A DNA stretch of 61,243 bases, the filler included, from Jimgerdemannia flammicorona (lineage: Eukaryota), in the NCBI GenBank assembly GCA_003990765.1. It is 3 parts of 3 records of this genome, joined end to end, with 100 filler letters (N's around TTAATTAATTAA, not from the genome) between each part and the next. Parts side by side here need not be neighbours in the genome. Positions count along the whole stretch, not along the records: positions 40,899 to 61,243 come from RBNJ01001704.1; 2 more parts are not named here. One strand, 5' to 3'. The notes under the pieces are model-generated. The model was not told where the DNA came from. It searched no databases and was given only the letters and a program-made list of their open reading frames with translations. The first letter of the stretch is position 1; every line of letters starts with the position of its first letter. Position numbers and translations under genes: made by a program. Shown one piece after another: positions 7,740 to 61,243 of the stretch.

Positions 7740-7834
7740 ATATATAGATATCAGAAAGTCTAATAAGTGAGCTTACTTATATTTATATAATATAATGACA
7801 TAATGAGTTTAGTTAATATAATGATTTATATAAG

Positions 7835-11811: not shown

Positions 11812-11862
<51 letters not shown>

Positions 11863-26580: not shown

Positions 26581-29500
26581 TCAAGCAGCAAGTCTTAGTG
26601 AAAATTAAGCTCAAGCTATACTCATTTTTAAAGGCCTAGTCAAAGGAAAAGAAGTTTAAGTACTCATAGATAGTGGAGCTGCAGGGAACTTCATCAATTA
26701 GAATCTCATCAAAAGTCTCAAGATCTTTACCAAGCCTATACTTAAGAATAATAGTATAGTTACTATAGATGGTACTCTACACCCCATTGAGTCAATTGCT
26801 GCCAAACTACCCATCAAGATTCAGAAATATTGAGAATAAGTAGACTTTGAGATTGTACTACTAGAAGATCATGACCTGATCTTAGGAAAATCCTGGCTTA
26901 TGAAATACAACCTAGATATCAATTGGTATAAGAATAAAGTCACTCTACTTCAAGATAGAGCCAATATCACTATCAAGACAGACAAGACTATAAATAAGAC
27001 CCAGATTGCAACACTGTCAGCTATATAGTATAAGAAAGCACTCAAGAAGGCAATATATATCTTTATTATAATGGTCCATTTCAAGAAATAAGACAAAAGA
27101 CTATTAGTCAATGAAAGTGTTAAGTTATTGCTAGAAGATTCAAGAATGTCTTTCCAGACAAGCTATCTGGTCTACCATCTATATGAGAAGTTGATCATGA
27201 AATCAAACTGACCCCAGGAGTTGTATCATCTAAAAAATATATGTACCACATGTCACTACTTGAAATTGAAGCAGTCAAGAAGGAACTAGAAGAACTACTT
27301 ACATGAGGAGCCATCCAGCCAAGCAAATCTCCTTATGGCTCACTAGTCTTATTTATCAAGAAGAAGAATGATACTCTGTGAATATGCATAGACTATTATA
27401 TACTCAACAAACTCACTGTTAAGAATCACTATCTGCTACTCTTAATTGATCAAATCTTTGATACTCTCAAGAATGCCAAGTACTTCACCAAGTTAGATCT
27501 TATGTCAGGATACCACCAGATTCAAATCAAGTCAGAAGATATTTCCAAGACTACATTCATGACCTTCTTTGGACTCTACAAATTTCTAGTCTAAGCATTT
27601 GGTCTCACCAATACACCCACCACATTCCAGATCCTAATGAATAAGATATTTAAGGACTAACTATTTATTTTTCTGTTGGTATATCTTGATGACATCCTGA
27701 TCTTTAGTATAACTAAAGAAGAATACCTCAAATACATTCAAATAGTCCTGGAGATCCTGTGAAAATACAAGTTTTATACTAAGCTTAAGAAGTATAAATT
27801 CTTCAAAGAATAAGTCAAATACCTTGGTCATATTATCTCTACACAAGGAATTCAAGTAGACCTATACAAGATAGAAGCAATTGAAGAATGGTCTATTCTG
27901 TCAAACTTCACAGAACTCTGATCCTTCCTTGGTCTAGCTGGCTACTACTACTGCTTTGTCAGAAACTTCTCTGGTATTACTGAGCCACTGACTAACCTCA
28001 TAAGAAAGACTCTACACTCAGACCACTATGTACTCTACACCTAGGACCTCTTCTGTCAACAAGCCTTTCAAGAACTCAAGAACTGTCTGATCTATGCTCC
28101 AGTCCTATGTAATGCAGATCAAGGCCTAAAATTCACAGTCACCACTGATGTATCAAATTTTGCCATTGGAGTAGTCCTATCACAAGATGATGGTAAAGAA
28201 AATCATCCTATTGTTTTTGAGTCCTACAAGTTGGCTCCAGCTAAACAAAAGCTAGCCACTCATGAGAAGGAACTACTGACAATAATATATACACTAGACC
28301 ACTGGTGATGCTATCTAGAAGGTATAGAGTTTGATATCATCACTGATCATCAATCTCTCAAGTATATCAATACCCAATCTACTCTGTCATATCTATAAGC
28401 CAAGTAGAGCCTTAAGCTTCAAACCTTCAATCTAATGATCATCTACAAGCCTGGCAAGACACTTGTAATACCAGATATCTTATCAAGATATTCAGACCTT
28501 ACTACAATCATACAGATCACCTTGGCATCAGAATTTCTAGACCAAATCAGGCAAGCTTACAAAGAAAATATAGTTACTATTAGAGTTTTCTTGAATGAGC
28601 TCAAGGATATATACATATACTGTCAAGAACAATCTGATCTATTATCAATAACAAGTCTACCTACTTAAAAACATAAACCTATACTATAAGATTTTATAAG
28701 AACACCATAACTCCCCTCTTACTGGTTATCTGAAAATTGAGAAGACTGTCAAGAACATTCAATACTGCTACTATTGGCCAAGTATGATCAAGGAAATCAA
28801 GAACTATGTTACCAGCTGTAATCTATATCAGCACAATAAGTCTACCAACCAAGTATCAGCCAGTTTGCTGCAACCACTATCAATTCCTCCTAAGAAATTC
28901 AAGTAAGTTATCATGGACTTTGTAACTTAACAACCATAAACTCAATCTGGTACTGATACTATCATTATATTCATTGACTACCTGACCAAGACTATGATTA
29001 CTAAACTAACTACTATTAATGCTACTGCACTCAAGATTACAAGAATCTTCTTCAAGTTCATCTTCCATCACTATGGCCTACTATAAGTAATTGTCAGTAA
29101 TTGTGACTCCAAGTTCACCAGTCACTTCTGAAAAACTCTCTTCAAGACCCTGGAAACCCAATTGGCTATGTTTACTATCTTTTACCTACAAACTGATGGA
29201 CAAACTAAGTATATGAACAGAACTCTAGAACAAATACTTAGAAACTATATTTCTTATGAGTAAGATAATTGGAACCACTATCTAACTTATATGGAATTTG
29301 TGTATAATAATGTCATCCAATCATCTACTGATCTTTCTCCTTTTCAGTTACTTTATGGTCAAGATCCCAAGACCTCTGCAAGTCTATTCTCTTTTAAGAA
29401 AAACAGCTAAATATAAGTCCCAACTGCCAAGACCTTATAGATAAAATGGACAAACTACTCAAGATTGCTACCATGAATCTTCAGAAGGCTCAATAGCATC

Positions 29501-29811
29501 AAGCTAAGTATGCTGATAAGAAACACTGTGATGTCACTTATACTGTTAGAGATCAAGTCTTACTATCTATCAAGAATCTCAAAATATAATCTCAAGTCAA
29601 CCACTCTTTGAATAAGTTCCAACCTAAGTATATTAGACCTTTCAAGATCACTGAACAAGTCTCTACATCCTCCTACTGCCTCAAGCTATCTGAAATTATA
29701 AGAGTACATCCAGTCTTTTATGTATCACACCTCAAGACCTGGAACTAGTCACTACCCTACCCTGGTCGAATTCCTAAGTCATCTGTTTCTGTGATTATTG
29801 AAGATCATATT

Positions 29812-29960
29812 AATTACAAAGCTGAAAAAATCCTTGACAAATGAATCTGCTACTGCCATCCTGAATACCTAGTTAAGTAGATAGGTTACTCTATATATGA
29901 TGCTATCTGAAAACTACTGATTAATCTCAAGAACTCTCAAGATCTAATTCAAGACTTCAC
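29812..29960 (+). pseudogene. Integrase C-terminal chromodomain
   Basis: YKAEKILDK...EYLVK*IGY...DAI*...NL matches YEVEKIL...YLVKWKGY...TWE..NL. Confidence 0.85.
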
Positions 29961-31843
29961 GGCAAAATACATTGTCTAATCCCTGTAGTGACTTCTTTGG
30001 ATTTTTAACAACCTATAGCAATAATCAGTATCTTATGTATCAGAAGTTTACTTTGGGACCCTGGAACTAGCAGAACATTTAATGAACAAGAAGTTCACCA
30101 AAATGAAGCTACTAGCCGGATTCAAACTCCTCCCAGTTGGTTAGTCTAATAATAGGCTCTCTGTCCTATATAAGGATGGCTAATCTCTACTAATATACTA
30201 ATATAAGTTTGAGAAATTTTGGTTAAGTATATCTAGTCTTATATTACCTAAGAACTCAATGAGGATATTAGTTCTTAAGGAGGGAGGGATGTAACAATTT
30301 CACAGTTATATTTAGTCTTAGTATATTTTTGTGTCTTTTAGTTAGTCTTTTCTTATTATTTCTTGAACATTCTACTATAATCCACTACCTTTTACTTACT
30401 TAGAAATCTTTTCTCAATGCCTAGACACTACTAGAATATTCTTATCTTTCCTTGGTACCAAATATCTTATCTTAGCTAGTTATAGACCCTTTTGGAACAT
30501 TGTAGAATAGTATTAGTCAGCTTTGCCAAGAACCTATTTCTTGGCATTTCTCTTTCTTTTCAAGATCCTTCTGGATATTTCTTTCAGATCATATATAAAT
30601 ATCCTTGTTCTCTATCTAAATAAAGCTTAGAATATTTTCTTCCAGAAATCCTTCAAGAATACTTAAATCTTTAAGTATCTCTTTGAGCTACTTTAGACCA
30701 ACTAGAACTTCTATATTTAGCTGCTTTCTCTTAAAGAAACTAGAATCATTACATCTCTCTATACTATAAATTAGAGAATTGATAACTATCTCCAGACTCT
30801 TGTCCTTAGTTTCTTTCAAGCTCTACTAGTTCCCCTGTCACAGTTCTGAGTACCCAATGGAATATATCTTTAAAGAATCTGAGTTCATCAAGAAAATCTC
30901 ACTCTGGCTAAGAGATTGCTCCAGATCTACTAGCTGTAAGTCTACTATATAATTGGAGAACAGTTGCAGAATCTTCCTCTTCTAGACCTGGCCTATATCC
31001 ACAACACCACTGGTCTGAATAGAAGAAATATCACTGCTGCAGAAAGACTATACACAATCTACAAACAGAATTCTTCAGCTCTGATCCAGGCTTAGTTCTC
31101 TCTAAATGATCTTTAAAAAATAACTCTACCCACCTACCTCAGTATTATCTACTAAGTTTGAGACCCTATTTTCTGAAAAAGAAGAGGAGTTCCTAGAATA
31201 GAGTGATTATAGTACAGATAATGAAGATGATGTAACAGATATAGATGTAGAAGCTACTTATATTTATTGAGATAATAACTGAAGAACAGTCTGAGAGACT
31301 ATTCTTTAGTGGGGGCTGATATGATGAGCAAATAGTATAATATAGCCAGATGATATGAACTCTCAGTATAGCATAGTTACTTATATCCATCATACTTATA
31401 ATTAGCTAGAATATCAAATCAGGGCTATTTATCTATATCTTGAGAATACACTTATATCCTGCAGACATACTCATATTCTACAGATATACTTATATCCTAT
31501 AAATATACCCAAATATTACCAGAGATGGTAAATCTATAATTATCTAGATAGCAACCAGATAGCAACCAACTTGTATAAAATATTCCAGAGATAAGAGTGA
31601 ATAAACCTCAGTCTGAAATTGAATCTAAAGCAACAGCATTCTCTTTCTACTCTAGTTCACTTTCCAATACAAAGATTGAATAATATGCTTGCCAGATAAG
31701 CCTAAAGAACTTGAGTATTTTGCTATCAAAGTTTGAGTAAAGAACTTTGCCACCTTTTGAAGAATCTGCTGCTTAAGGAAAAGCTGCTATTTTTAAGTTA
31801 CATATCTGCTATTCTCAAAGAGCCTACTATAAGGAATCTTGCT

Positions 31844-31981
31844 ACAAAGTCAGTCTATTGATATAACTTTATAGTAGAGCCAGTTTAATGATATAACTCT
31901 ATATAAACAAAGTCAGTCTATTGATATAACTTTATAGTAGAGCCAGTTTAATGATATAACTCTATATAAACAAAGTCAGTC
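31844..31981. repeat. Perfect 63-bp tandem duplication
   Basis: ACAAAGTCAGTCTATTGATATAACTTT...CTCTATATAA starts at both 31844 and 31907. Confidence 0.92.
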
Positions 31982-32194
31982 TTGATACAACTTTGCTCAA
32001 GAAACCCACCATTTCCAGAGAGCTGCTGATTCAGGAAGAATTTATGATATCTAAGCTATCTGAGTTATCTGAATTATTTATATTATCTAAGTTATTTACT
32101 TATTCTCAGTAAGTCTGATTCAGAAGAATCCACACTATTCTCTATTTCTAGTAAGCCACTGATTTAGAAGAATCTGTACCAAAACTGAGTTATC

Positions 32195-33291
32195 TTTTTT
32201 TTTTTTTTTTTTTAACGGACTCATGTCCTGCGGATTTTTATTGGAAGGGAACCTAGACTATATAGGCCAAAACCCTCCCCCACCACTCACCAAGCACTGC
32301 CCCCCCATTAACCTAGGCTAGCTATTGTCCAGCAGCTCAACCATGCCAGGCGCAGCAGGACTGATAAGCCTGTACCTCATTCTGTGCACCATGCTCTCCC
32401 TACCACCAGGGGAAACCCAACCATATGCCAACGACCGAAAGCACATGCCTGAGAACCCAACGTATGTACAAGGCCATGCCCGAGCTGAATAGAATAGCCC
32501 CTGCCACCTCAAAGAGAATGATAGGTAAATAAAAACTCTCATCAAAGTACAACACGGTAGGTAGGGCCTGGTTCTCCCAGATGAGGTGAGTAAAGAACTT
32601 ACACATGAGGCAGAAGGAAACCCCCAATACCCCACTACTCAAGCCTGCAGGCCTCAATCACATTGCCATGTTAGCTCCCGGTTCCAGTTGAGTGTAGCCA
32701 AGATGCCTGAAATGGGTAGCCTCGGGCCTCCTGACCCCCCCTGATGACTGGGGCCCAACCCCGCTGACCACCAAAAAAAGCCGATAGTGACACCTACCAC
32801 CTAACCATGCCACACCAATCAAAAGGCCCCACCAAAGCAGCACCTGCCCCAGCCCTGATGACCACCCCCAGTCTGGCACCCTACTGGTTCACTGTAATCA
32901 CCCTTCTGCCTATCTGTGATGGCCATCTCCCCTCTCATCCTGACAATACCCAAAAAGCAGTCACATATACCAGAACTGTGCTCGCCGGGAAGCTTGCCAA
33001 AGCCAGAGGGCCCCACCACAGGTACCGAGGACCTGCAGGTAACCTACACTGAGCACTTGATGCCCAAGGTCAGCCAACTCCCTACGTAGCCTGAGACATA
33101 CCGAGACAACTCCTTATTGGTGACGGCAAAAGGAAGAAGGCGCTGCACCAAAATGGGTACACCCCAGATGCAGCTGAAGGCACTAGAATCTGTGAAAAAG
33201 TGGAGGAAGCACCGATCCAACACCAATAAAGGGGCAACTTATCACCATTGCCCTCCTCCCACCATACCCCTACAGGCACAGCAAACCAACC
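32195..33291 (-). mobile_element. Retroposon copy 2 (least mutated), slightly 5'-truncated
   Basis: Poly(T) tail and TSD (ACC)AAAACTGAGTTATC(T) at 32178-32195 and 33289-33306. Confidence 0.9.
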
Positions 33292-40798: not shown

Positions 40799-40898
40799 NN
40801 NNNNNNNNNNNNNNNNNNNNNNNNNNNNNNNNNNNNNNNNNNTTAATTAATTAANNNNNNNNNNNNNNNNNNNNNNNNNNNNNNNNNNNNNNNNNNNN
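40799..40898. other. Artificial scaffold gap with TTAATTAATTAA spacer
   Basis: 100-bp N block with linker. Confidence 0.97.
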
Positions 40899-45120: not shown

Positions 45121-45293
45121 CTATAGTCATATGTTCATTTATTACTAAAAAATAAATGTAATAATACATAATAAAATTCTACAGGCTGATGGAAAACTCT
45201 CTTAAGTTTATTTCTATAGAGAGTTTCTTTTATATTTATAATAGTTGTGAAAATTCGCCAATTTTGTGGCTTAGAATATATCACATGACTATG

Positions 45294-45798
45294 TGTAGAG
45301 GCACGTGGCCAAAAATAGGACGCGTCCAAATCAGGCAAGAATCCTGGATTCTGAAAGAAGTCCTGTTCCATTTCCATTTCTATCAGTAAAGCGCTCTAAT
45401 TACTCAGTGGAGTGTTCCAGACACTTCTTGGGGTTCGTAGAAGCATATGGAGAAAGATTACTCAGTATTTCTAGCAGTTTCAAGGATAGGAGGGCTTCCA
45501 TGTATAAATAGCATAGGCTCAAGCATGCAATAAAGGACAGAGTTAGTTCAGTAAGAGAATTGGAATTTATTGAGAATTGGTAACTAGAAGCGCATATCCT
45601 GAGGATTCGTAGATCTAAGGATTTGGTGTACAAGCAGTCGTTTTTCAAGCCTTCCAAGAGGTTCTTCCAATACTTTACTTAGCGAATTCCCTAGCAAATG
45701 CATCACGATTACCACACACCCTTTCAATCTACAACCAGTCCAATTACTGCCCCTTTGACAGTCAAGTGATTTCAGGTGGAAATTTGCTAAATTTCACA
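45294..45798 (+). repeat. 5' LTR (505 bp)
   Basis: Colinear with 52090-52594; contains TATAAATA and AATAAA. Confidence 0.97.
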
Positions 45799-45865
45799 TT
45801 GGTGGAGACATCAAGGAATAATTCTCAAAATCAAGCATTCAAGTGAAACCCACAACTACATCAAG

Positions 45866-48800
45866 ATGTCGCCAGCACAGGAGGCTCCGCTACACTATGC
45901 TGGTGCATACCACAAAAATGTCATCACTTTCTTTGAAGATCTAGAAACCTATATAGTCAACTATCGTATCTGTGCCAATGATGAAAAGGTGGACATGCTC
46001 AAAGCCCACCTACACAACGAAGCCCTGACAGTTGCCAATACTGCAGTTCCATCAGGAAACCCCTTTGTTGTCTTCGCCGGACCTATGTATGACACAATTA
46101 AGGCCTGCATTATCGGCCACTTCACCAAGAATCAAGGGCTCACAGCACTTAACATCGGCCTTGACAACATCGTGATCGGCCCGGGGGAGAGCCCTGTTAC
46201 TTTCTGGACCCATGTGCAGAAGAACTGCAACCTATACAGCATTGATATAAGGGAGCTGAGAGAGCAGACATTCTACCAAGGAGCCATGAAGATCTACAGT
46301 AGTGAGATATGTCAAAATTATCGGAAGGGGTTCAATGAAGTACTCCTTGCCACTCAGAACATATGGGAAGACTATGCGGGACAAATAGGAATGTCCAGGC
46401 CAGCAGTATACACCCCGAGAATCCCTCCATTTGTCTTGGACTCTTTGCTGGCCACCGGTATGCCAACCAATCCTCTGGTGGCTCACTTGATGGAGTTCCG
46501 GGCTGCGACGGCAACAGTGGCAAGCACCTACATAGCTCAGCCGGCAGCCTCCCCTATGTCTACGACCAGCGACGAGCTAACGGAGTTGATCAAAAAGGCT
46601 GTTAGTCTGGTGGTGAACAATAAAATACAGCAAAATCAATGACAAATTACAACAGTTCGAGAAACGCACCTCGAGCAGTCCCCGGAAGTGCTACGACTGT
46701 GGAGAGGTCGGCCACGTGGCAAGATATTGCCCGAACCGCAAGCAAGAGGATGGATCGGGACCAGCAACAGACAGTAATCGTATATCAGTCCAAGTGGTGC
46801 CCACCAGCTGTACCCCTTCCACCAATCATGTGGGCATAAGCGAGCAGTCAGAAGGTTCAGCAGAAGCTTACCCAGTTGTAAAGGATGTCCATTTTAACCT
46901 GATAGCTGGAAGGACACAGGGAAAATAGGTGGCAACTAGAACCGGTGGGGCCAGCAGAGCCAGCAGGGCCGTTCAGAGTGGAACAGCACCAGATGATGAG
47001 GTAATGGCAGATGTAGAAGAAGGAAACAAGGAGCCAGCTGGTGAGCAAGTGGTGGAAATTCCCATCCTCCCAGTACCGAAGAAGAAAGCAAAGCAAGCTC
47101 AGAAGAAGTTTGGGATGATCAACATGATGAACGATGGGGAACCTTACTCGATTGCAGCATCCCTGACCAACACACCTGCTGGTATAACCTACAGATAACT
47201 CCTAGCCATCTCCCTGATTGGCCGGAAGGAGTTCAGGCAAGGGCTGTGGCGCGGTGTCATCGCGGTGGAACCAGCAGAAGAACCCATGGTCGAACTGGTC
47301 ATCCAGGAACCCACCGTCCAAGACCCTGCCAAGGGACCAGCAGGAGCAGCTGTAATGGCCTCCACTGTTATCATGAAATCCACCACAGTCCTGTATGGAG
47401 AGGTAGAAGTAGGCAGCAGGAGGTATGAGGTCATCTTTGACACCAGCGCCTCGGAGAATTGCATCCCGGAACATGTGGCCAAAACTACGAGAAGGGCGAT
47501 CAAGTCTACTAACCTTGTTGTAAGCACAACAAACAGAACCCTATGCCTGCGCGGAATGATAGAAGGACTCAGGTACCAAGGAATACTTACTCGACGCTAT
47601 TGTCTTCCTGGACACCTCGTTAGCAACCATCTTAATCGGCATGGCTTGGTTGCAGCTGCAAGGTGCCCACATCCGCTTGGACACTATACAATTAGTCCTA
47701 AGGGATGGCAATAGCATTCCAGTACAGACCGGAGCCTGATTAATGCAGGCCGAAGGCATCAATGAGGATGATAGCGGAACGGACAACACCTTGGATGAAG
47801 AAAACAACAAAAAAGGTGACGAGCAGGTGCATGCCATGACAATGAACCTAATAGGTCCTGACCTGGATAAGGAATAACTGCATGACCTCACGCTTGTACT
47901 AGGTGATGCCCCATTCGCTGACAGGGTAGAAGATTTCGGGTATTGTAACCTTGTCCAACATCGCATATACACAGGCAACACGGTCCCGATTAGACAAAAG
48001 GCATATAGGCTTAGCCCGCGGAAGAAAGCCTTTATACAAGAAGAATTGGAAAAATTAACAATGCTTGGAGTAATACAATTATCGGAGAGTCCCTGGGCCT
48101 CTCCTGTTGTCATTCCGGACAAGAAGGATGGAAACTTATGACTTTGCGGCGATTTCCAGAAGCTCAATCTGGCAATGGTCAAGGATGCATATCCCTTGCC
48201 TAGAATCAACAAGCTCTTGGACACACTAAGTAGAGGCACGTGGTTCTCCACCTTGGACCTGAAGAGCGGGTTCTGGCAGATCGAACTGGCTCTGGAGGAT
48301 AGGTCAAAAATGGCATTCATCATGGTGTTTGGACTATACGAATACCAGCATATGCTGATGAGTCTCATGAACTCCCCGGCAATATTCCAGCGCCTTATGG
48401 ACCTGATCCTATGACCATACATCAGCAAGTTCGTACTGGTCTACGTAGATGATGTCATCATATATTCAGCAACCTATAATGAGCATATGGAGTATTTAGC
48501 TGTCGTAATGGAAGCCTTTCAGCATGCCAACCTTACACTCAACTGTAAGAAGTATTTCTTTGCTCAAAAGCGGGTTGCTTACTTGGGACATATCATCAAC
48601 GGTGCTGGAATACATGTGGATCCCACCAAAATGCATAAAATTAGCACGTTTCCCATTCCAAAGAACCTCGAGGACGTACGCCGGTTCCTAGGAATCATGG
48701 GGTATTATCGCCATTTTGTGCCTGGCTTTGCAGCGGTGGCACAGCCCCTTACGAAGTTGACATCCAAGACACATGCCTTCAAGTGGTTGGAGGATGTGCA

Positions 48801-50500
48801 GCAAGCATTCGAGGAATTGCGGGATCACCTGATTCAGGCACCCATCCTGGCATATCCATGCGACGGGGCCCTCTCTATCTTGCAAATGGATGCCTCAGAC
48901 TACGCGATTGGCTGTGTGCTCACACAGATAGGGGTCGACGGTCTTGAACACCCTGTCGCTTATGCAAGCAGAACTCTAAATGGCGCTGAGCAGAAGTATA
49001 CAATAACGGAAAAGGAAGGATTAGTGGTTGTTTGGGGTATAGACCAGTTTCATTACTATTTGGACACCGGTCAGCCTTTTGTCATACAGACCGACCATGC
49101 AGTGCTCAAATCTATCCTCACTACCAAAGAACCCAAGGGACATATAGCTCGATGGATAGTCAAGCTGATGGCTTACCAGTACACTGTTGAGCTTCACCCA
49201 GGTCGAGTTCACTCGAATGCCAATGCATTGTCCTGGCTGATAGAACCCGAGCAAGAAGAACCAGTGGAAGTCTATGTGGCAAAGAAAAGAGTGGAACATG
49301 TAAGCACAAAGTGGACCCCAGAAATATACAATGAGACCCTCGCCAAAATTACCGATTCCCCATCCAGCCCACTTCTTGCTGCCCCAATTCTGAGGAAAAT
49401 AAGAGAAATAGTCCAGAAGCTCGAGCTCAACCAGCAGACCCTTCCCTTCGCTACATCAAAAATAAGCACATCTTACCTCATCCCAACCAGGTATCTCCCC
49501 TGATAGACCGATTCCACGGGATGGTATATTTCAGGCTCAAGAACACCTTGTGGGCAGTGCAATGTGAATACTGGTGGCCAGGAATGTTTCAGGATGTACA
49601 ACAATATGTAGCCTCCTGTGAAGCTTGCCAGGCATGCGTCAGCCCAAAAAGGCATGAGAACTTGATGCCTATCGAAGTGATGGGCCCCTTTGACAGGGTC
49701 AGAGTGGACTTTGTTGGACCGTTGCCACAAACAGACTGTATGAACGCATATATTATTGTTGGCATAGACTACCTTACGAAGTGGGTAGAGGCACATGCTA
49801 CCGTCAATGCCACCACCACCACCACTGCTAGGTTTATATATGAGGACATAGTTTGCTGACACAGTTGCCCTATAATCTTGCAGAGTGACTGGGGGAGCCA
49901 TTTTGTGGGGAATGTTGTCAGCGAGCTGACTGCTCATTTCGGAATTACCCACAAGTTCACGATGCCATATCACCTCCAGTCTAACGGCCTTGTGGAGAGA
50001 TTCAACCAAACCCTAAAAGGAGTGCTAAAAAGGCTAGTGTTAGAACACGACAATGACTGGGATCTACATCTCTCCATTATTCTTTTTGCATACCGAACCA
50101 TGACCCAGGCAACCACTTGTCATTCCCCATTCGCACTTACCTATGGGCGGGAGGCACAGCACCCCTTTGGACCCACCATCAGTCTGGTTGACAAGCCCTC
50201 GGAGGATACCTTAGCAGAGGCTATCCTTAGGCAAGCCGAGGAGGTTGCCCATCTCGACGAGAAGGCTCGTAAGTAGGCCCTTGAGTGAATCAGGAATGAG
50301 CAAGTGAAACAGAAGGCTTGGTATGATGCTCAGAGAGTTTGGGGCCTCATTCCGCCATTGGCGGAAGGAGATCTAGTGATGCTGTATAAAGAAACTGCGG
50401 GGGCATGGGAATCTTAGTGGGCAGGGCCATATACAGTCAAGATTGTCTACAGAAATGGCACTTATTCACTGACGGGGCCTGGCGGAGTGGACCTAGAGGC
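45866..50500 (+). pseudogene. gag-pol polyprotein (gag, CCHC knuckle, protease, RT, RNase H, integrase)
   Basis: CYDCGEVGHVARYC, VIFDTSASENCI, DAYPLPRI, LDLKSGFWQI, YVDD, MDASDYAIG, VDFVGPLP, QSDWGSHF, SNGLVERFNQTL. Several stops and frameshifts. Confidence 0.95.
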
Positions 50501-50912
50501 TCCCCAATATGGAAACAGGTTCCAGGCATATATTCCGAGGGTGTAGGGGCTGAATGAGGGCTGATGCAAGAGGATGCGGGCAGAATGGAGTGTGGGAAAG
50601 AGCTTAAAGATAGGTGGCTGAGTGGCGGGAGACAAAAATTAGGTACTGGCGGGACTGGCAAAAGCTGTTATTGGAGGGAATCGGCATAGATTACCACCGG
50701 AGGAATATTTGCGGATGTATAGCAGTCCAAGGAGTGGGCTGAAATAGATGACAACAAGGTAGCAGCATAGAGCAGACTGAAACCTATCGAATGAGCTTTT
50801 CAGAAGAAAAATCAGGTGTCAATTGGGCCAGATAACCCCAGATAAAGAACAGACCCTTGGTAGCCCACCAGAATGCGCAGACATTTCATTATTCCTCTTT
50901 TAGTTAAACTAG

Positions 50913-50920
50913 TATAAATA
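50913..50920 (+). promoter_or_regulatory. Putative internal TATA box for the cyclin-like ORF
   Basis: TATAAATA followed by a CT-rich tract, 80 bp before ATG 51000. Confidence 0.5.
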
Positions 50921-50999
50921 TGCATCGAATACGTGACAAATCCTCTTTATCCTTATCAATCCTGTCTCTCTTCTTTCTCTTTTCCTTCATTATATCATC

Positions 51000-52058
51000 A
51001 TGACTAACTCTTCGGTACAAGCCCCCCTTTCCTGCTCCTCTTCAACTATCGTACCATCAACTCCACCCTTTTACCATGCTATCCTGAACCAGGGCACCAC
51101 AGCCCCAGCATCTCCCTCGACACCGCGCTCGGCTTTCACCACCCTGGAACCTGATAATGGTGGCTCCTCGACGGATCACTCGAGCCACAACGGGTTCTCT
51201 CCCTCTGACCTTTATGAAGAAGGAGAAGCATAATGACCCCTTTGGATAGAACCCTGTACTCCGCCCCTCAAGGAAAACTGTTACGAGCGATTCTGGTCGA
51301 CTCCTGGCCACCTAGATGGCATCGTCGATTGGCAAGAAAGATATCTGCATTGGCAAGAGCATGGAAAAAAACTGGAAAGTGAGGCAAAGGGCGTCCAAGT
51401 CAATATTAGAATAATGCTGATGCGTAACCCATATGCTTGGCACCAATGGAAGGAAATGTTTTTATGGTTGCTAGTTCTAGCATCCACGTATGGCGCAGAT
51501 CAGCAAATATCGATGTCCTTCGTAGCGTTGAATATCCTAGACCAATTCATGACGAGGGGTCCGTTGGAAGAAGACTGTTATCAAATCGCCAGTGTAGTGT
51601 GCTTTGGACTGGCATATAGGGCAATGACCCCTTATCTAGATTGTCATTGGTCCTCGGAACAAGCAAAAAGACTGCACGATGAATGATACGAGGAGAGAGA
51701 AAATGAGGAGGTCTTTTGTCAACTGGAGCATGAGATCCTATAACTGTTAGAATGGCGTTTGGCACCCAAGGCCTCCGCAGAAAGCGTCCTTCAGTTCCTG
51801 GGGAATGAGCAAGGAATATGACCAGAAGAAAGGCTATATGCCAGAGGACGAAACGAATTGGCAATCTTTGACCAGGACTTGGCCAAATTCGATGCATGGA
51901 CCCTGGTGTCATCCAGTCTATACATTGCCAGAAAAGGGAATGCAGGGCCTCTGACCCCGGACGACCCTCGTTTTCCATGTCTTTACTGTTTCTCACAATG
52001 CTTATGTTCCTCGGCGCCCCCCATGGTCCACCGGCATTATCTGCAGTTGTTCTTGTAA
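51000..52058 (+). pseudogene. Cyclin-like protein (Cyclin_N + Cyclin_C), ~352 aa, five C-to-T-type internal stops
   Basis: One frame throughout: WKEMFLWLL...FVALNILDQFM...YQIASVVCFGLAYR...LEHEIL*LLEWRLAP...ELAIFDQDLAKFDAWTLVSSSLYIARK. Confidence 0.82.
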
Positions 52059-52089
52059 GGAAGGATGCATCCAAAGAAGGGAAGATGGA

Positions 52090-52594
52090 TGTAGAGGCAC
52101 GTGGCCAAAAATAGGATGTGTCCAAATCAGGCAAGAATCCTGGATTCTGAAAGAAGTCCTGTTCCATTTCTATTTCTATCAGTAAAGTGCTCTAATTACT
52201 CAGCGGAGCGTTCCAGACACTTCTTGGGGTTCGTAGAAGCATATGGAGAAAGATTACTCAGTATTTCTAGCAGTTTCGAGGATAGGAGGGCTTCCATGTA
52301 TAAATAGCATAGGCTCAAGTATGCAATAAAGGACAGAGTTAGTTCAGTAAGAGAATTGGAATTTATTGAGAATTGGCAACTAGAAGCACATATCCTGAGG
52401 ATTCGTAGATCTAAGGATTTGGTGTGCAAGTGGTCGTTATTCAAGCCTTCCGAGAGATTCTTCTGACACTTTACTTAGTGAATTCCCTAGCAAACATGTT
52501 GCGATTACCACACACCCTTTCGATCTACAATCAGTCCAATTACCGCCCCTTTGACAGTCAAGTGATTTCAGGTGGAAATTTGCCGAATTTCACA
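52090..52594 (+). repeat. 3' LTR (505 bp)
   Basis: Follows the PPT; followed by TSD CTATG at 52595-52599. Confidence 0.97.
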
Positions 52595-52959
52595 CTATGT
52601 TAGTTTCAATTTCCATGTCTATACTCAATGATTTTAACCCTTTCTTTCGGCTTTTATTACTCCATAATAAGAGCTCAATATCTAAATATATTAATATATA
52701 CTAAAAGAGTATTATCTTTACTTCAACTCTATCAAGAGATTTTTTTAAATTCATTATATTTATATAAGTAATAATATTTTGAAATATATATAGTATAGTT
52801 ATATTACTATAAAGTAAAAATAAATTTAAATTAGATTTTATTTAAAATAAATAAATAAAATTTAATAAAAATTATATTATATACTCTGATGAAATTCATT
52901 AGTAAAACAAAAAAAAAATAAAAAACAAAAAACAAATTATTAAATATATTTTATTAATA

Positions 52960-55325
52960 TAAATAAGATAGTTAATCTGAATTAGGAATATGAATCAGGA
53001 GAATATATATTTGATCATAATATCTGAATCTGATTTCCAAATATAGTATAGCCTTACAAATAGCAGTCATTTCAAAAATATAGAAACTTTAACAAATATT
53101 AAGATTTTACAAATATTGAAATTTTACAGATATCAAGAATCTATACTTATGAAGAGTTACTCACAGAAGATATAGTTATAACTTAGCCACCTTATAGCTA
53201 GCAAACTTATATAAATATCCTCATTATCTAGAGTGAATAAATCTCAGATTAAAATAGTTTGAAATAAGAGAAAGTAGAACTAGTAAGTCTATAGGCAAAT
53301 ATACTTTAAACTTATTCACTTCTATATTCCAAGAACTCTGTAGAGTCAAAGAAGATTAAGTTTTTAAGATACAGAAATCTGACATACTTACCCAGTTACA
53401 CATCAACTATATTACAACTTAGTATCTATTAGCTAATAATTTAAGATAAATTTCTCACTTTCATACTAAATAACAAATAACTACTGACTAAAAAACAACT
53501 ATATAAATTGAATCAAGACATCTAGACAAGATAGATATAAGACTGTCAGTATTCTATAGATATACTTCAGATAAATTAATTATTACCTTTATTAATAATT
53601 TTGAGCAATATATATAGCTATAAAGATTCTGACAGCAAGACATTAAGTAGCCCTCATGTCTTTTAGTCTCTGAGGTCTTGCAAGAGTAGTATTTACAGTT
53701 ATAACTCATATAGAAAATAATAATAATACTATGCTGATACATAGTATAGAAGGTCTGGCTCTAAACTCTCTACTATATAGATAAGATCAAGCAAGTTTTA
53801 AAGAATTAGCTCAATACTATATACTAAGAAATGAGTAAGAATCCAAATATATTCTACACTAGAATCTAATATCAGATTATTCTTATAGATTATACTGATA
53901 TTATTTGAGACCAAGTAGCTAAGGCAACCTTTATAAAAAGAGTCTACTTAGAGATAACCATGACCATCTACTTATCACCAGTAGTTCTGGATTTATCACA
54001 GAAGGTCACCTATGCCCAGTGATACTAAATAGGCAGACATTTATAAGATTATATAATAGAAAGAGTCACTGAAGTCAGAATTGAAGCACTCAAGATAACT
54101 AGTATAATTTTTACCACAATAGTCAATCAAAATATATTATATCAAAAGCTATAGAATAATAAAAAAATAGTGATATTATGGAAGAACTTGTCAAGAGATT
54201 TGCAGAAATAACTTCCATTTAGGAGATATAGTAAAGAAAATCAGAGTAAGAGACTACTATCTAGTTTAAATGTTTACTATCACCTCAGATAAAAAGAGAG
54301 GTATCTGTAACATCTGTAGAGAAGAAGGCCACTACTTATATAAATATATAAGTGAGACCAAGTATAAGATCTGACTAAGCAATACTTCTCAAAATAAGAG
54401 ATATACCAATACTATCACTTTTGAAGAAATTGGAGAATCTGATGAAAAAGAATGAGAGATCTATCCTGCCCAGATTACTAAAAAAAAGTATCTATAAGAA
54501 GTCCTACAGAAGACTACTAGGAAAACCTAAGAAGAATCTAGTAGAAAAACAGATAGAGACTAATATAGAAAGCTAAGCTAAAGAAATAGATCAAGATATG
54601 AAATTGGAACAAAATGTCTAAGATATCATTCAAGGAACTACTCCAGCCAGCAAGAGAGAAAAGAAGAAGAAGCTTTGCAAAACTAAGACCTTTAAGTATA
54701 ATATTTTCAAAGATCTCAGCTAACAAAAAGTCAATGCAACCTTTGGCCAGCTAGCAGAAATTCCCACATTTAAATAGCAAATAAGATATGAACTTACCAA
54801 AACAACTAAGGATCAAGATCAGAAGATAACTGAGACCAATAATATTCAAGAATACTTTAGAGAGAAAAGTAAAGATAATTACAAGATCTTTGCCTATATA
54901 ACCTATTATATTAAAGATAGCATCTTTGAAGCCATTATTGATAGGAGAGTAAGAGGATGTCTTCTTAGTAAGAAGACAGCAAACTGTATAGGTTGAGAAG
55001 TTGAAGAAGTAACCAAGTTAGTGTTCATTATAACAGAAAATACAAAAGTAATACCTTTAAGAAAAATCCAAGATATTCTCATCAAGTTTGGAGGAGTACT
55101 ATTCTAGTAAATATAATTGTAACCAATGCTACCAATTATGACATCCTTATCAGCAATCAATGGTTTCATAAAGCCAGAACAATCATTAATCTGAATATCT
55201 AGAAAGTATAAATTATCTACTGAGGACAGAAGATGCAAATCTCCATCAATGTTAACAAAAGAGTACTTTCTGAAATAGAGAAAGAAAGAAGTAAGCAAGA
55301 AGAAGCTTATATAATAACTATTCAG

Positions 55326-55361
<36 letters not shown>

Positions 55362-57500
55362 AAAAAAAAAAAAAACAAAAAAAAAAAAAAAAAAAAAGTT
55401 AGATAGATGAGTGAAGAAGAGTAGTGCAAGTAGATTATTGAAGAATATATACTATAAGAAGTCTGCCTCTATAAGATTAAGATATACTGTATAGAGTATA
55501 TTAATGATTACTATCAGTATATTAGTAGAATCAAGAAGATCTATAATAAAAGAAAACAGAAGGTCTTTGAGAAACAGCCAAGAGAAGAAAAGAAGAAGAA
55601 AGAGGATAATGAACCACCAGCCCTCCTAGAAGACAGTAATGATGAAAAAGAAATCAAGGTCAAGATTTGGAAGATTTATTCTGATATAGTTCCATCAGAA
55701 TATAAGTTAGAGAATACAGCTAGAATAAATATCACCATAGTAGAAAAAACCATACTTGAACTCCAGACAACTACCCTACTTACAACTAGTCTAGAGATAA
55801 CTATTCCAAGAGACCATATCAGAATTCTCAAGATAAGAAGCAGTCTGATTAAAAGTAAGATTATTATTAGAGGAGTTATTGATTTAGACTATATTAGAGA
55901 AATACTACTTATTGCTAGGAACCACAATTCTATAATCCCAATCCCAATCAAGAAGAAGAACTAACTGATGAAGATATTAATCTTCTCAGTCCTTTAGCTA
56001 AAGATCATAAAAGTCAAGAAGTTGGAGAAAACAGGAAGAGAAAAGAAAGGATTCAGATCTATAGGAAAAGGAGTATTCACTAGTACCAAAATTACCAAAC
56101 TGAATCATGAAAAGGAGGAAACTATGAATAAGTATAGCTATACTATTAGAAATAAATTTCTATACAAGAAGGAACTCAAGGAGATACTTTATAAATTTGA
56201 GAATATTCTGGTTACAGATTTTAAAAACACTAAGAAAAAGACTCCACACTACTATTATAATATAGATATAGGAAATACTGAACCAATATATCAAAAAGTA
56301 AGATCAATTTTGCTAGCCTACTGTGAATTGCTTAGAGAAGAAATCAAGCAAATAGAAGAAGTCAGTATTATTAAAGAAGCTAGTAGTCCTTGGGCTTCAC
56401 TAGTTATACTAGTCTCCAAAAAAGAAAGCAAGCTAGGAGAATTTGCCCTAAGACTCTGTATTGATTATAAAAAGCTCAACCAAGTTACTAAGTAGGACTA
56501 TTAACTACTCTTACTCATCGATAATATCCTTGTAACTCTAGAAGATAAGTATAGTATTACAGCACCTTGAATTTATATTCAGAATTCTACCAAATTGGTC
56601 TCATAGAAGTAGCAAGTGAGAAGTTATTCTTTATCACTCTAGATGAAATCTATGTCTATCTATGAATATTATTCAGAATATATAATATACTAGTAAGTTT
56701 TCAGCAAATAATAAATAAAATCTTCTGTTATAATATAGGAAGATAGATAATGGTTTATATAGATAACATAATTATCTATAGCTAGATATTAGAGAAATAT
56801 CTATAGTATATTCAGCAGATGATAGAGAAGCTAAGAAAGTATAGCCTATATATCAAGTTTAAGAAATGTAAATTTGTAGAAATTGAGATCTTCTACTATA
56901 TCATCAACTGAGATAGAATATATATAGACTCCCTCAAGATATAAGTAGTAGTAGTATACTCAAGACCTACTACTATTACTGAAGCTTAAGCTTTTGTAGG
57001 ACTTATCTTATATATATTATTGCAGATTTATTAGAGAGTTCTCTAATATTATAGGCCTAATCTATGAACTCAATAAGAAGAATATCAAGTTCTAATAAAC
57101 TGATAGGTAATAAAAAGTATTTGGTGAGCTCAAAATCAGACTGACCTAAGTACCTATCCTCAGAAGACCCAATTGGACTCAAGAATTTATCTTGAAGACA
57201 GATATAAGTATATAAGAACTAGGAGCAGTTTTGGCTTAGAAAAAAGATAAAGTAGAGTATATCATTATATATTTTAGCTAAGGGACTCAAGAAGCTGAAA
57301 AAGAATATGAATCCTATAAGTTAGAATGTCTTATAGTTATCTGAACTATAGAAAAGTTCTACTACTATCTTACTAGAAGATACTTCACTATTCAGACAGA
57401 TTACTCAGCCCTTACCTAGCTACTGGCTACTGTATAATCCAAAGAAATCTATGCTAGATAAATTATGAAGTTATAAGTCTATGATATAACCATCATACAC
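52960..57500 (+). mobile_element. Third Ty3/Gypsy element with dUTPase between PR and RT, decayed, 3'-truncated
   Basis: LTR ends at 53416. CNICREEGH knuckle, AIIDR protease, dUTPase, SPWAS..LRLCIDYKKLN, VYIDN, RNase H. Confidence 0.87.
55650..56070 (+). pseudogene. dUTPase domain between protease and RT
   Basis: IRSSLIK, RGVIDLDYIRE (GVIDxDYxGE), GREKKGFRSIG (RG..GFGSTG). Confidence 0.8.
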
Positions 57501-58855
57501 TATTTTATTTTATTTTATTTTTTTTTATAGTTACTTGGACTTTGCCATTTTATTACCAATCTATCACCTAAAATTACATTACTCCATTACCCTACCCAAT
57601 ATCCCTAGAGAGCCCTCCCCTACACTCTCACACTTGAATACCACTCTATCACCCAATATTCTCTTCACTCTGCCTACAGATTTTCTCTACCAAATAGTAT
57701 CACTGACTCCTCTGCAGACTCCATCCCAACCACCAGCCTATCAAGGTGTCCTCTATCAACCCTTCCCACCTCACCAACTGCTCCCTCAGACTCAAATACT
57801 TTCTATCCTCAAATACAAATAATCAGTAATCTGCTAGTTCTACCTATACTGCTAGTACCAAACCCAAAGTCAGTCACTCCCTCTCCACCCCCCCCCACCA
57901 ATCTATCTCACAGATCCTCCCATCAATCCTGCTCACCATTCCTTCTGCAAATAATACCAAACCTATTCCCAACTACTAACCAAAAGTCTCCAAGTATCTT
58001 ATACTCTCCTAGTCAATGTTCTAGTATCTATACCAATCCCTCTGCCTGTCCTACATTATAGCACTCCTTACAATCAAAGTTCTCTTCCTCCATAAGGTAG
58101 CCCAAGTGGAAGTTGAGCATGATATTTCTCTACAGCATGCACCACCAAACCACCCAGTACTTAGGTGGTAACTATTGCTATATTGCTACACTCTAGGCCC
58201 AGATGCTATTCTAGTCCCAATCCTCTTCAATTCCTGCCATCTGCTAGCCACTAGGCCATACATCCTGTCCTATCCCCCTCTGGTACTCTACCCTATCACT
58301 CATATCAAAGTCTAAAAGAGGGGCACCCTCCAGTAATACTCAATCTCATCTCCACATTACTAGGCCTCAAGACATATCTCCTTTATCCCCCTATTAGCAA
58401 ATCTCAATACAGTGAGCCCCATTCACTACTCTCTACCAGAAGCCCTTATATCTCATTTGCCCCCTATTAGAAAGCCTAACTAAGGACAGTAAATCTCCAG
58501 TTGCTTCTCTTGGTGAGCACTATATCTCCCAGACCTTCTTCATCAGAGGGACCCAGCTACTATCTCTCAATTCCACCACTCTTCTCAGCCACCATGCTTG
58601 CAGACAATATAGTCTCTTCAGAAAGTCAACCAGCCCAAGACCCCATCTAGCTACTTGCAATGATAAGATTTTCCAGCCAATCTGACTCCTCTGCCTAGCC
58701 CAGATCCAATCTTTTGCTAACTTCAATAGCCTCTTCACCACCCAGACTAAAATGTCCAGGTGATATACTAAATATCATAACTTTGGTAATTAGTAAATAT
58801 TCAAAATAACAATACACTCTGCCAAAGACAGATGGTGGCCTCTCCAACCTACATT
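57501..58855 (-). mobile_element. L1-type LINE 3' fragment with A-rich tail
   Basis: (TTTTA)n/poly(T) at the left. VKRLLKLAKDWIW...GLGLVDF is homologous to ~900-1200. Confidence 0.85.
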
Positions 58856-58859
58856 TATA

Positions 58860-61243
58860 TGCTTTAGTATAGCTTATATAGTCCTGATATTACTATCTAG
58901 AGCATGTTAGTATATTCTAATAATTTTCTAATTCTGAATAAATTTCTCAGTAAATGTTAGAGTACTTTTGCTTATGTATTCTTCATAAAAGATCCCTCAT
59001 CACTAGAGAGCTCACTATTATCTTCATCTTTGATCTCTATTATTTTTGGCTCAGATATCTCTAACTTAAATATATATAGCAGTTGAAAATAATTTCAATT
59101 AACTACTAGAGAGATAGATAATAGTTATTATACTTATACTAAGAGATATAGAAATCCTAATAGATTCATCTATGTAAGATTCTTAATTTCTTTTTTCTCT
59201 AAACTATATATTATATATATAACTATATATTACTCTTATGTGGATTCCAAAGTTGATATATCTTGTCAGAACACTTAAGAAACATATGCTTACTGGCTTT
59301 TAACTCAAATTTATACTAATTGATATTAATCTTATTGAGAATATATACATTATATTCAAATATATATAGATGTGATTCATCAGGCTTAGTTCTACTTCAT
59401 AATTCTTCAGAGCTAAGATTATCATTCTTTTGCTTATTATTACCAGACTTCTTGCTAAGTATTTGAGAAATATATTAATTATAGATATATACTACTATGT
59501 TAATAGCTTCAGCCTAATAAGAATATGATAATTCAGTCATATTAATTATCATTCAAGCCATTTTAATAATCATATAATTAAATTGCTTGTTCATACCATT
59601 CTGTTGGAGTATATAAGAAGCTATTATTTAATAGTATATATAGTAGTTTTTCAGAAATTGCTTGAATACATTCTTGATGTATTCACATCTATTATCTGAT
59701 TATATAGCATATATTCTATATTCTGTCTCATTCTTGGTGATCACTTTGAATTCTTTGAATTTATTCAAGACTTTACTCTATACTAATAGGAAATATATAT
59801 ATATCCTGCCTATATAATTATTGATAAATGTGATGAAATATTTCTTCTCAGAGTATAATTATATATATATCAGCATATATATATATATAAGATTGAGGAT
59901 CCCAGATATATACTTTAATTATTTCTCAAATAGTTAGTGAGAAGCTTTATTTTCCATATATATCTTATAAAAGCTATTCTCTAGAAATATATATTTTGAT
60001 AATCTATTCATCAAACCACTTCAGATTATCTTTCTGAGACTTGATTTGCTGATATATCCTAAGTGTTGATACCATGTATTAGATGTATTAGATATTGTTA
60101 TTATATATATAGAGACTTTTATATTATCTCTATTTAGTGTACTATTGATTGTATAAAGATTACTATATTTTGAAGCTATCATCAACTTATTATCATCTAA
60201 ATTATACACTGTTATACCCTTTGAATATATATGTATCTCTTTGTTGTTATGAGATATCATCTTGTCTATTGAAAAGAGATTTTTACCAATTTCTAGAGTA
60301 TATAGTATATCTAAAAAGGTACTGATAGATACTATAATATTACTATAGAGATATATCTTCACATTTCCCTTTCCTTAAGTATAGATGATATTGTTATCTT
60401 CTAGTTTGATAGATACAGAATACTCAAAAGACTCATATATAGAGAACTATTTCCTATATGACATTATATATTATATGACTCCAGAATCTATTAGTTAGAT
60501 ATCATTATCATCAGCTATATTTACAGTATATTTACTACTAATAGTACTGATATCATTGCTACTTTATATTGACCCAAAAGTATTTTGCTGACCAGGATTT
60601 ATAGATGACAGATTGGTAGATTTGGTGGTAGAACTGCTTATAGATCTCATAATAGTAGCCAAATTGTTATCTATATATTACTTATATGAAAAACATACTA
60701 CTGTTATTAATTTCAGTAATGTTTATATTATCACACTTCTCTTTGCCTCAATAATTCTTTCTGCTGCCCCTATATTACTAATACTGACTTTTATATTATT
60801 TATTTTTACTACTCTTCTTATTATTTTCTCAGTAATAATAATGATACTTTCTGTATTCATACTTACTATAGTATTCATAGTAATAATTATACTTAATTGA
60901 TTGGCTACTATTATGTTAATTTTGGGTTTAAGTTTATTGATCTTATTGTCTATACTTTTGATATTATTTGGTGCTACTACTATGTTTACAGGATTTACAA
61001 AAGATATTTTTATCATTATTACCACTATTTTCTTAACATATTTTCTCATTTATAAGGCTCATTATCATATAGATATAGTTTATGAGTCTGTCACTCTTAA
61101 ATATAGCTATAATAATAATATTATATATATTCAGAAGTTCCCTTATAAGTACTATAACCTTTTCTTTATTGCTAATACAATCTATAGATATTCTGAGAAA
61201 ATTTACTTAATTTACCAGATTGTTGATATAACTTTTTTTTTTT
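58860..61243 (-). mobile_element. Ty1/Copia remnant (gag end, protease, GAG-pre-integrase, integrase)
   Basis: LIDSG (~60490), TWYQHLGYIS, SDNRCEY (SDNGGEY), QQNGM. Integrase directly follows protease. Confidence 0.85.

Follow-up and report, generated by a model that had tools for sequence, protein, structure and literature searches.

Viral cyclins are a textbook case in which parasites take charge of the cell cycle of their host. The v-cyclins of gammaherpesviruses and the cyclins of giant viruses derive from hosts, and in each case a mobile genetic parasite retains them to direct the CDKs of its host. Both groups are large DNA viruses whose cyclins are of D-type or other clear ancestry, whereas the element described here is a 7.3-kb retrotransposon. 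To our knowledge, cyclins in reverse-transcribing elements have been described only in three fish retroviruses.

The rv-cyclins (orf a) of walleye dermal sarcoma virus and of walleye epidermal hyperplasia viruses 1 and 2 share less than 20% identity with any metazoan cyclin; the rv-cyclin is made from spliced transcripts and associates with cdk8, according to PMC3185748. The third ORF of the present element is like the epsilonretrovirus rv-cyclins in being a cyclin-like, putatively accessory gene of a reverse-transcribing element, placed beside gag, pro and pol. Both lie too far from host cyclins for a recent transduction (<20% identity for the rv-cyclins according to PMC3185748, 23% here). 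The walleye epsilonretroviruses are infectious vertebrate retroviruses with env, whereas in the present Ty3/gypsy element no env-like ORF was found and the copy of the third ORF is a pseudogene.

ORFs beyond ORF1 and ORF2 are borne by bdelloid rotifer LTR retrotransposons, as PMC5408684 states. Additional ORFs of LTR retrotransposons, such as the bdelloid ones, share with the third ORF its sense orientation and its place after pol and ahead of the polypurine tract. No description of a cyclin in an LTR retrotransposon was found in the full-text literature searched, a body of text outside which subscription journals and Repbase lie; a "cyclin" match in PMC4427930 turned out to be the word "cycling". 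The present element carries, in the env position, a third gene with a two-domain cyclin likeness, an arrangement for which a few fish retroviruses are the sole described parallels.

Anatomy of the element and frame of the third ORF

The window analysed is a stretch of 61,243 nucleotides of DNA from Jimgerdemannia flammicorona. Nucleotides 45294–52594 are a complete, decayed Ty3/gypsy LTR retrotransposon of 7.3 kb, with the following features.

45289..45293, + strand: target-site duplication CTATG, 5′ side (identical 5 bases at both element ends)
45294..45798, + strand: 5′ LTR, TG...CA, ~505 bp, with TATAAATA at ~45503 (direct repeat with 52090–52594)
45800..45817, + strand: putative primer-binding site, starting TGG one base past the LTR (sequence reading alone)
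45866..46642, + strand: gag-like ORF, 258 aa, intact (ORF listing)
47265..47714, + strand: aspartic protease region (weak gag-asp_proteas match, E 0.0058, under the cut-off)
47893..49500, + strand: reverse transcriptase and RNase H, 2 in-frame stops (RVT_1 3.4e-25, RT_RNaseH 5.2e-33; tblastn with related polyproteins)
49521..50543, + strand: integrase, zinc-binding H2C2 and rve core, 4 in-frame stops (Integrase_H2C2 7.9e-10, rve 4.4e-09; frame reading)
50544..50999, + strand: spacer, 456 nt, whose integrase/ORF3 frame has many stops (translation)
51000..52058, + strand: third ORF, cyclin-like pseudogene, 352 codons and stop, 5 internal stops (translation, profile and pairwise comparison)
51000..51389, + strand: N-terminal 130 residues of the third ORF, S/T/P-rich at the start, without detectable relative
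51390..51761, + strand: first cyclin-box domain, residues 131–254 (Pfam Cyclin_N and Saitoella alignment)
51762..52037, + strand: second cyclin-box domain, residues 255–346 (Saitoella Cyclin_C alignment)
52073..52089, + strand: polypurine tract, adjoining the 3′ LTR (sequence reading)
52090..52594, + strand: 3′ LTR (direct repeat of the 5′ LTR)
52595..52599, + strand: target-site duplication CTATG, 3′ side (same 5 bases as the 5′ flank)

The paired TG...CA LTRs, the target-site duplication and the PBS-like and polypurine tracts are those of an LTR element. The pol domains follow the Ty3/gypsy order PR-RT-RNaseH-IN in the Pfam search, with which tblastn with related polyproteins agrees, the protease match being weak. 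The first-pass annotation had called the host element a gypsy LTR retrotransposon, and all these features bear it out. Because the CTATG flanks match, both LTRs belong to one insertion; they differ by 27 substitutions in 503 aligned bases. The runs of N in the window, 20350–20449 and 40799–40898, are both outside the element. For the gag-like ORF the Pfam search gave no family; its closest Atlas clusters bear Retrotrans_gag, an observation that serves as a lead only. The integrase has no chromodomain match, and its final matched residues are near 50486–50543.

The first-pass annotation had joined three shorter ORFs into one frame between the integrase and the polypurine tract. This is what translation gives: nt 51000–52058 are a single sense frame of 353 codons, 352 for residues and the terminal TAA at 52056, ending 14 nt 5′ of the purine-rich tract 52073–52089. 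The internal stops are exactly the five it had listed (TAA 51231, TGA 51234, TGA 51684, TAA 51741 and TGA 51819), which make the third ORF a pseudogene in the present copy. Each of the remaining five frames over the same nucleotides has 8 to 17 stops. Five stops or fewer occurred in none of 5000 mononucleotide shuffles of the ORF stretch (mean 16.8), and in 1.6% of 1002 background windows taken elsewhere in the window. The openness of the frame exceeds chance.

The ORF had also been called intronless, and no sign of an intron was seen; the cyclin alignment is collinear in one frame and contains no visible frameshift. The region 3′ of the terminal stop holds neither a poly(A) remnant nor a 3′ UTR remnant. 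Upstream of the frame, as had been reported, stands TATAAATA; it lies at 50913–50920, about 80 nt 5′ of the ATG, and is followed downstream by a CT-rich leader at ~50941–50999. On the opposite strand, an ORF of 206 aa at 51547–52167 has no Pfam family and was taken as chance.

Relation of the third ORF to cyclins

The third-ORF protein was compared as the decayed copy encodes it, with X at the five stop positions. Pfam Cyclin_N (PF00134) matched residues 151–254 with an E value of 2.8e-4 over profile positions 32 to 126/127, at 21 bits against a gathering cut-off of 23; Cyclin_C (PF02984) was not reported in this search. A HMMER scan of 1.84 billion representatives, which stand for clusters of ~15 billion proteins, gave two matches at E ≤0.001, and no rv-cyclin was among them. 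The sole non-repetitive match is a 441-aa Saitoella cyclin (E 3.9e-4, query residues 144–345), a fungal protein which has both Cyclin_N and Cyclin_C (207–272) and whose closest solved structures are cyclins A2, B1, F, E and D. The other match, P0002, is a repetitive protein of 1875 aa that aligns in four stretches with query residues 7–61; it was rejected as a compositional match to the S/T/P-rich N-terminus. With phmmer, the third ORF had no match at E ≤10 among solved structures.

Pairwise comparison with the Saitoella cyclin gave a BLASTP E value of 8e-12 at 23% identity, and a Smith-Waterman score of 129, compared with 33 ± 4.7 (maximum 58) in 1000 shuffles, that is, z 20. The two halves match independently and in order. 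Residues 131–254 align with Saitoella 92–204, its Cyclin_N, at z 6.1, a score reached by 1 of 1000 shuffles; residues 255–352 align with Saitoella 208–303, which covers its Cyclin_C, at z 11.2, a score that none of 1000 shuffles reached. The third ORF thus has two tandem cyclin-box domains collinear with those of a genuine cyclin. The likeness ends there: residues 1–77 have no Pfam family, and the N-terminal 130 residues score z -0.6 against the Saitoella protein.

The claim that the relation to cyclins spans both cyclin-box domains is upheld by the Cyclin_N match, the Saitoella match, the overall z and the order of the halves. The first-pass annotation had said that its proposal would fall if no cyclin-fold hit were found; at the sequence level, cyclin hits are at hand in Pfam Cyclin_N and the Saitoella protein. 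The cyclin motifs it quoted are present, apart from the residues in brackets. ALNILD.F and LE.EIL.LLEW are legible in the sequence as it stands, and the bracketed residues are hypothetical reversions that the sequence does not contain: it has W150, Q182 and H244, and a stop at 248, in their places. AlphaFold2 models of the third ORF are all-helical at a confidence too low to serve in a fold search, with pLDDT 35.2 when run with no alignment and 38.7 with a 4-row alignment.

By sequence comparison, the third ORF is best read as the remnant of a highly diverged two-domain cyclin gene, the two halves of its C-terminal 220 residues being collinear with Cyclin_N and Cyclin_C of the Saitoella protein. 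It has the two collinear cyclin-box halves of cellular cell-cycle cyclins, of which the 441-aa Saitoella protein is the nearest. It differs from them in its 23% identity, its Pfam score below the gathering cut-off, its unrelated 130-residue N-terminus, its intronless frame and its place inside a transposon. The cyclin-like third ORF is a real feature, on a basis that is promising and single-copy.

Decay of the present copy and search for relatives

The LTR pair gives per-site rates of change of 0.24 for CpG, 0.04 for CpA, 0.02 for CpC and 0 for CpT, and about 2.7% of sites have been altered since insertion. Like the third ORF, pol is broken by CpG/CpA transitions. From the LTR rates, 2.6 new stops are predicted in the third ORF vs 5 seen (P 0.12), 2.1 vs 4 in the integrase, and 2.5 vs 2 in RT-RNaseH. 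The stop count of the third ORF fits the post-insertion rate of the LTRs and pol, and therefore the gene was probably open at insertion. Most likely, it was open when the present copy was reverse-transcribed and inserted, and was co-transposed with the element; the count is compatible with this and does not prove it. The third ORF has 5 stops in 352 codons, a density somewhat above the 6 in ~1284 codons of gag-pol, and therefore some decay before insertion is possible. A change of ~2.7% since insertion is too small for decay to account for an identity of 23% to the nearest relative.

Searches of the window with the element and with the ORF (blastn, tblastn) returned a single copy, the element itself. 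Further gypsy pol remnants in the window, at 27727–29365 and 56807–57494, are distant and contain no cyclin-like stretch. A word-indexed protein search (193–616 aa; 30–192 aa) gave no relative of the third ORF at E ≤0.01. Contig scans confirmed none in viral contigs or in metagenome contigs, and a viral-contig scan with a 3-row alignment also gave none, the patterns chosen for it falling outside the cyclin box. The related elements compared have a pol identity of 30–46%; PF00134 was in none of the 120 listed pol relatives, and a cyclin-like stretch in none of nine distant metagenome loci with related elements. Those pol relatives that bear names are of fish, insect or plant origin or belong to one bacterial metagenome bin, and none exceeds 46% identity.

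Accessory gene or captured passenger

The third ORF is an addition to the element and not a replacement, since the element retains gag and every pol domain and the ORF ends just before the polypurine tract. With a nearest relative only 23% identical, its recent source was no ordinary conserved host cyclin. We infer that it is an accessory gene rather than a dead passenger, and we judge the chances to be about even that it is a diverged, CDK-directed cyclin serving a Ty3/gypsy element, seen here in a single, decayed copy. In the mechanism that we propose, the message for the third ORF would be a subgenomic or spliced RNA begun or accepted in the 456-nt spacer 50544–50999, where a TATA-like box and the CT-rich leader are the candidate signals and may act as promoter or splice acceptor. 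The partner of its product would be a Cdk1/Cdc28-type cell-cycle CDK of the host. By analogy with viral cyclins, the pair might then push the cell into, or hold it at, a stage that suits the element's expression, reverse transcription or integration. Somewhat more tentatively, a Ty3/gypsy lineage, probably fungal, may have long kept, as its third gene, a rapidly evolving cyclin with which it takes over a host CDK and thereby couples retrotransposition to a favourable stage of the cell cycle, or forces such a stage.

The single copy in the window can also be explained by a one-off transduction, in which an unusual, fast-evolving cyclin-like host mRNA or gene was caught a single time, through template switching or recombination, travelled without a function in one or a few copies, and then decayed. 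The lack of ORF relatives in the protein, viral-contig and metagenome-contig collections searched would fit such an event, as would the stop density slightly above that of pol. Capture of host sequences by LTR retrotransposons and retroviruses is itself established and is the topic of PMC5408684. Several observations are at odds with a one-off capture, none of them decisive: the best cellular relative is only 23% identical; gag and pol are all retained, whereas in classical transduction the captured sequence usually takes the place of genes of the element; the 14 nt between the ORF and the polypurine tract hold neither a 3′ UTR nor a poly(A) remnant; and the number of stops is compatible with a frame open at insertion. 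On balance we regard this origin as rather unlikely.

An accessory cyclin need not act on the cell cycle. It could be of the transcription type and tune transcription from the element's LTR or of host genes, like the walleye cyclin that binds CDK8 (Mediator). The sole described retroelement cyclins act in this way, the rv-cyclin associating with cdk8 and affecting transcription according to PMC3185748, and cyclins have nothing that corresponds to the 130-residue, S/T/P-rich N-terminal extension. However, the nearest relative of the third ORF is of the cell-cycle type (A2, B1, F, E and D rather than C, H and T), although an identity of 23% is a weak guide to the kinase, and we consider a transcription-type cyclin improbable. 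Least of all do we credit an artefact, be it an assembly chimera, two elements around a host gene, or a chance likeness to cyclins. The N runs in the draft assembly and the Pfam Cyclin_N score under the cut-off might raise such a suspicion, but the N runs are far from the element, the CTATG flanks bind both LTRs to one insertion, and the cyclin likeness stands at z 20 against shuffles with both halves matching independently; an artefact is thus very improbable.

If the CDK-directed accessory gene that we favour is real, non-infectious retroelements would have their first cyclin, one that arose independently of, and in parallel to, those of fish retroviruses and herpesviruses, and the short list of Ty3/gypsy accessory genes would gain a new class. 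A cyclin kept by an LTR retrotransposon would imply that a purely genomic parasite, without an infection step, also profits from CDK manipulation, and would offer a direct handle on how retrotransposition is linked to the cell cycle. If the ORF is instead a one-off capture, it would still be a clean example in which an LTR element has transduced an entire intronless gene of host type and kept its own genes. Elsewhere in the window, in which Rfam detected no RNA genes, a LINE RT ORF was looked up in the Atlas and led to RVT_1 clusters.

Cyclin homology of the third ORF

The third ORF of the Ty3/gypsy element (window 45294–52594), hereafter the cyclin-like ORF, lies at 51000–52058 (+) and reads as a single frame of 352 codons plus a terminal TAA. 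It carries five internal stops, while the remaining five frames contain 8 to 17. Five or fewer stops occurred in 0 of 5000 shuffles of this stretch (mean 16.8) and in only 1.6% of 1002 same-size background windows elsewhere in the window. Integrase and the cyclin-like ORF are in the same phase, but because a 456-nt spacer (50544–50999) with ten stops parts them, the latter is a separate ORF and not an extension of pol.

Landmarks of the cyclin-like ORF
50913–50920: TATA-like box TATAAATA, then a CT-rich tract reaching the ATG
51231 (TAA), 51234 (TGA), 51684 (TGA), 51741 (TAA), 51819 (TGA): internal stops
52073–52089: purine tract adjoining the 3′ LTR, 14 nt past the end of the ORF

The first-pass annotation had placed a cyclin-like gene here and quoted cyclin motifs from it. 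The frame, the five stops, the box and the position before the polypurine tract are as it described. The residues it had supplied by hypothetical reversion of decayed codons are absent from the sequence, which has W150, Q182, H244 and a stop at 248 in these places. In addition, an antisense ATG-initiated ORF of 206 aa, 51547–52167 (-), overlaps the latter half of the cyclin-like frame and extends into the 3′ LTR. It matches no Pfam family and probably arose by chance.

P0001, the ORF product with X at the five stops, was compared with known proteins. Pfam reported Cyclin_N as the sole family (residues 151–254, profile 32–126 of 127, E 2.8e-4). Its score of 21 bits falls below the curated cut-off (23), the query being a decayed copy with X at its stops; Cyclin_C, which the first-pass annotation had also named, was unreported. 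A phmmer search of solved structures returned nothing. HMMER over 1.84 billion representative proteins gave two proteins at E ≤0.001. One, a repetitive protein of 1875 aa, aligned in four stretches on the S/T/P-rich N-terminus and was rejected as compositional. The other, P0003, a 441-aa cyclin of the fungus Saitoella, covers P0001 residues 144–345 (E 3.9e-4). P0003 contains Cyclin_N (3.1e-36) and Cyclin_C (6.7e-11), and its nearest solved structure is cyclin A2 (4e-26), then B1, F, E1 and D1.

BLASTP aligned P0001 with P0003 at 8e-12, with 23% identity over 183 columns. The Smith-Waterman score was 129, compared with 33 ± 4.7 for 1000 shuffles (maximum 58; z 20) and 30 for the reversed sequence. 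Residues 131–254 matched P0003 92–204, its Cyclin_N (z 6.1, 1 of 1000 shuffles as high), and residues 255–352 matched 208–303, over its Cyclin_C (z 11.2, 0 of 1000). The first 130 residues showed no similarity to P0003 (z −0.6). Two structure models (pLDDT 35.2 and 38.7) were too poor for use. With both halves matching in order, the cyclin relationship first proposed from motifs is borne out by these alignments: homology of the product to two-domain cyclins is well supported on sequence grounds, at a very great distance from all sampled cyclins.

The host element and its state at insertion

Features of the element
45294–45798 and 52090–52594: LTR pair, direct repeat of ~505 bp, TG at start and CA at end
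Both element ends: target-site duplication, identical five bases CTATG
One base past the 5′ LTR: putative primer-binding site, a TGG-initiated stretch
45866–46642: gag-like ORF, 258 aa, intact
47893–49500: RVT_1 (3.4e-25) and RNase H (5.2e-33)
49521–50543: integrase zinc and core domains

The gag-like ORF had no Pfam match; its Atlas neighbours are of the Retrotrans_gag type only, which is a lead. The protease match is weak. The reading frame shifts from PR to RT and from RT to IN, and tblastn with related polyproteins agrees with the domain order. From the LTR pair, the CTATG flanks and the gag/PR/RT/RNase H/IN content, the element is therefore a complete yet decayed 7.3-kb Ty3/gypsy insertion. 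The window's N runs at 20350–20449 and 40799–40898 are distant from it; each site is a pair of 44-base N runs with 12 bases between, taken as either scaffold gaps or masked sequence.

Between the two LTRs, 503 aligned bases contain 27 substitutions, 26 of them transitions and one a T/A transversion. Change since insertion is ~2.7% of sites; the per-copy rates by context listed below take C and G as ancestral. The five ORF stops are all TAA or TGA, types producible by such transitions. The expected new stops in each frame were obtained by applying the LTR context rates to its stop-prone codons.

Changes in the LTRs by context, and stops by frame
CpG: 19 of 80 changed, rate 0.24
CpA: 5 of 118, rate 0.04
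CpC: 2 of 98, rate 0.02
CpT: 0 of 144, rate 0
Cyclin-like ORF: 2.6 stops expected, 5 seen (Poisson P 0.12)
IN: 2.1 expected, 4 seen
RT-RNaseH: 2.5 expected, 2 seen
PR: 0.5 expected, 0 seen
gag: 0.6 expected, 0 seen

No frameshift is visible over the alignment to P0003. Given this and the stop counts, the frame is preserved as well as the element's own genes. Thus the cyclin-like ORF was probably open at the time of this copy's insertion, and its modest stop excess leaves room for some decay beforehand.

Resident gene or captured passenger

LTR elements are known to capture host sequence, and the cyclin-like ORF could be such a passenger; the window holds only one copy of the element, and the stop density of the ORF is slightly above that of pol. 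However, the nearest cellular cyclin is 23% identical, a distance that the ~2.7% post-insertion change cannot account for, and the recent source is therefore no ordinary conserved host cyclin. Gag and pol are both complete, so the gene was added and replaced nothing. The ORF also fills the interval before the polypurine tract, with no UTR or poly(A) remnant ahead of it. These arguments for a resident gene of the element are indirect.

The word-indexed protein collection, covered for near and shorter lengths, yielded no relatives of the ORF, and viral and metagenome contigs yielded none either. The element's pol has 387 relatives at E 1e-10; among the 120 listed, the best is 46% identical, those named belong to fish, insects and plants, plus a single bacterial metagenome bin, and none of the 120 carries PF00134. 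Nor was a cyclin-like stretch present in any of nine metagenome loci found with pol (30–36% identical). Since the collections searched leave the whole element family unsampled, absence of the ORF elsewhere carries little weight.

Searches of the openly available full-text literature turned up no LTR retrotransposon described as carrying a cyclin. The closest known case is the epsilonretrovirus rv-cyclin, encoded by a retroelement as an accessory gene; PMC3185748 makes the same distance argument against a recent host source for fish retroviral cyclins. The cyclin-like gene holds up as a feature of the sequence, on the basis of a single dead copy.

In its most likely mode of action, the product of an intact copy would partner a Cdk1/Cdc28-type kinase of the host and shift the cell-cycle state to the element's advantage; P0003, its closest relative, belongs to the cell-cycle-type cyclins by its best-matching solved structures. 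Alternatively, it could act in transcription through a CDK8-type kinase, which would match the sole described retroelement cyclins (PMC3185748). Expression may proceed from a subgenomic or spliced RNA, using either the TATA-like box of the spacer or a pyrimidine-rich acceptor within it.

Remainder of the window

The window is transposon sequence throughout, with AT-rich blocks. Two nested LTR elements occupy 22315–33069, with outer repeats at ~22315–23143 / 32232–33069 (72–84% identity) and an inner LTR pair at 24819–25044 / 30459–30684 (88%). Between the inner LTRs lies a distant gypsy pol (27727–29365), 29–37% identical to the element's RT/IN; no cyclin-like stretch was found in the nest. 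A third gypsy-type RT/RNaseH remnant, strongly decayed and 24–33% identical to the element's pol, lies at 56807–57494, and no LTR pair was found in 52600–61243. Positions 1–6000 (-) look like a non-LTR (LINE-like) element. This region is GC-rich (52–54%; GC skew ~−0.43; CpG observed/expected 0.19) and holds two ORFs: one of 413 aa (1089–2330), with RVT_1 reverse transcriptases as its sole Atlas neighbours, and a glycine-rich one of 351 aa (4641–5696). Atlas neighbours of this 413-aa ORF and of the gag-like ORF pointed to no informative taxon.

The AT-rich blocks 6001–12000 and 52600–61243 have a GC content of 23–29%, CpG observed/expected of 0.01–0.02, TpA/ApT of ~1.05–1.09 and (CpA+TpG)/(ApC+GpT) of ~1.1. 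Together with the LTR spectrum (CpG 0.24 versus CpA 0.04), these CpG-poor blocks point to CpG-directed hypermutation or methylation decay over classical CpA-type RIP.
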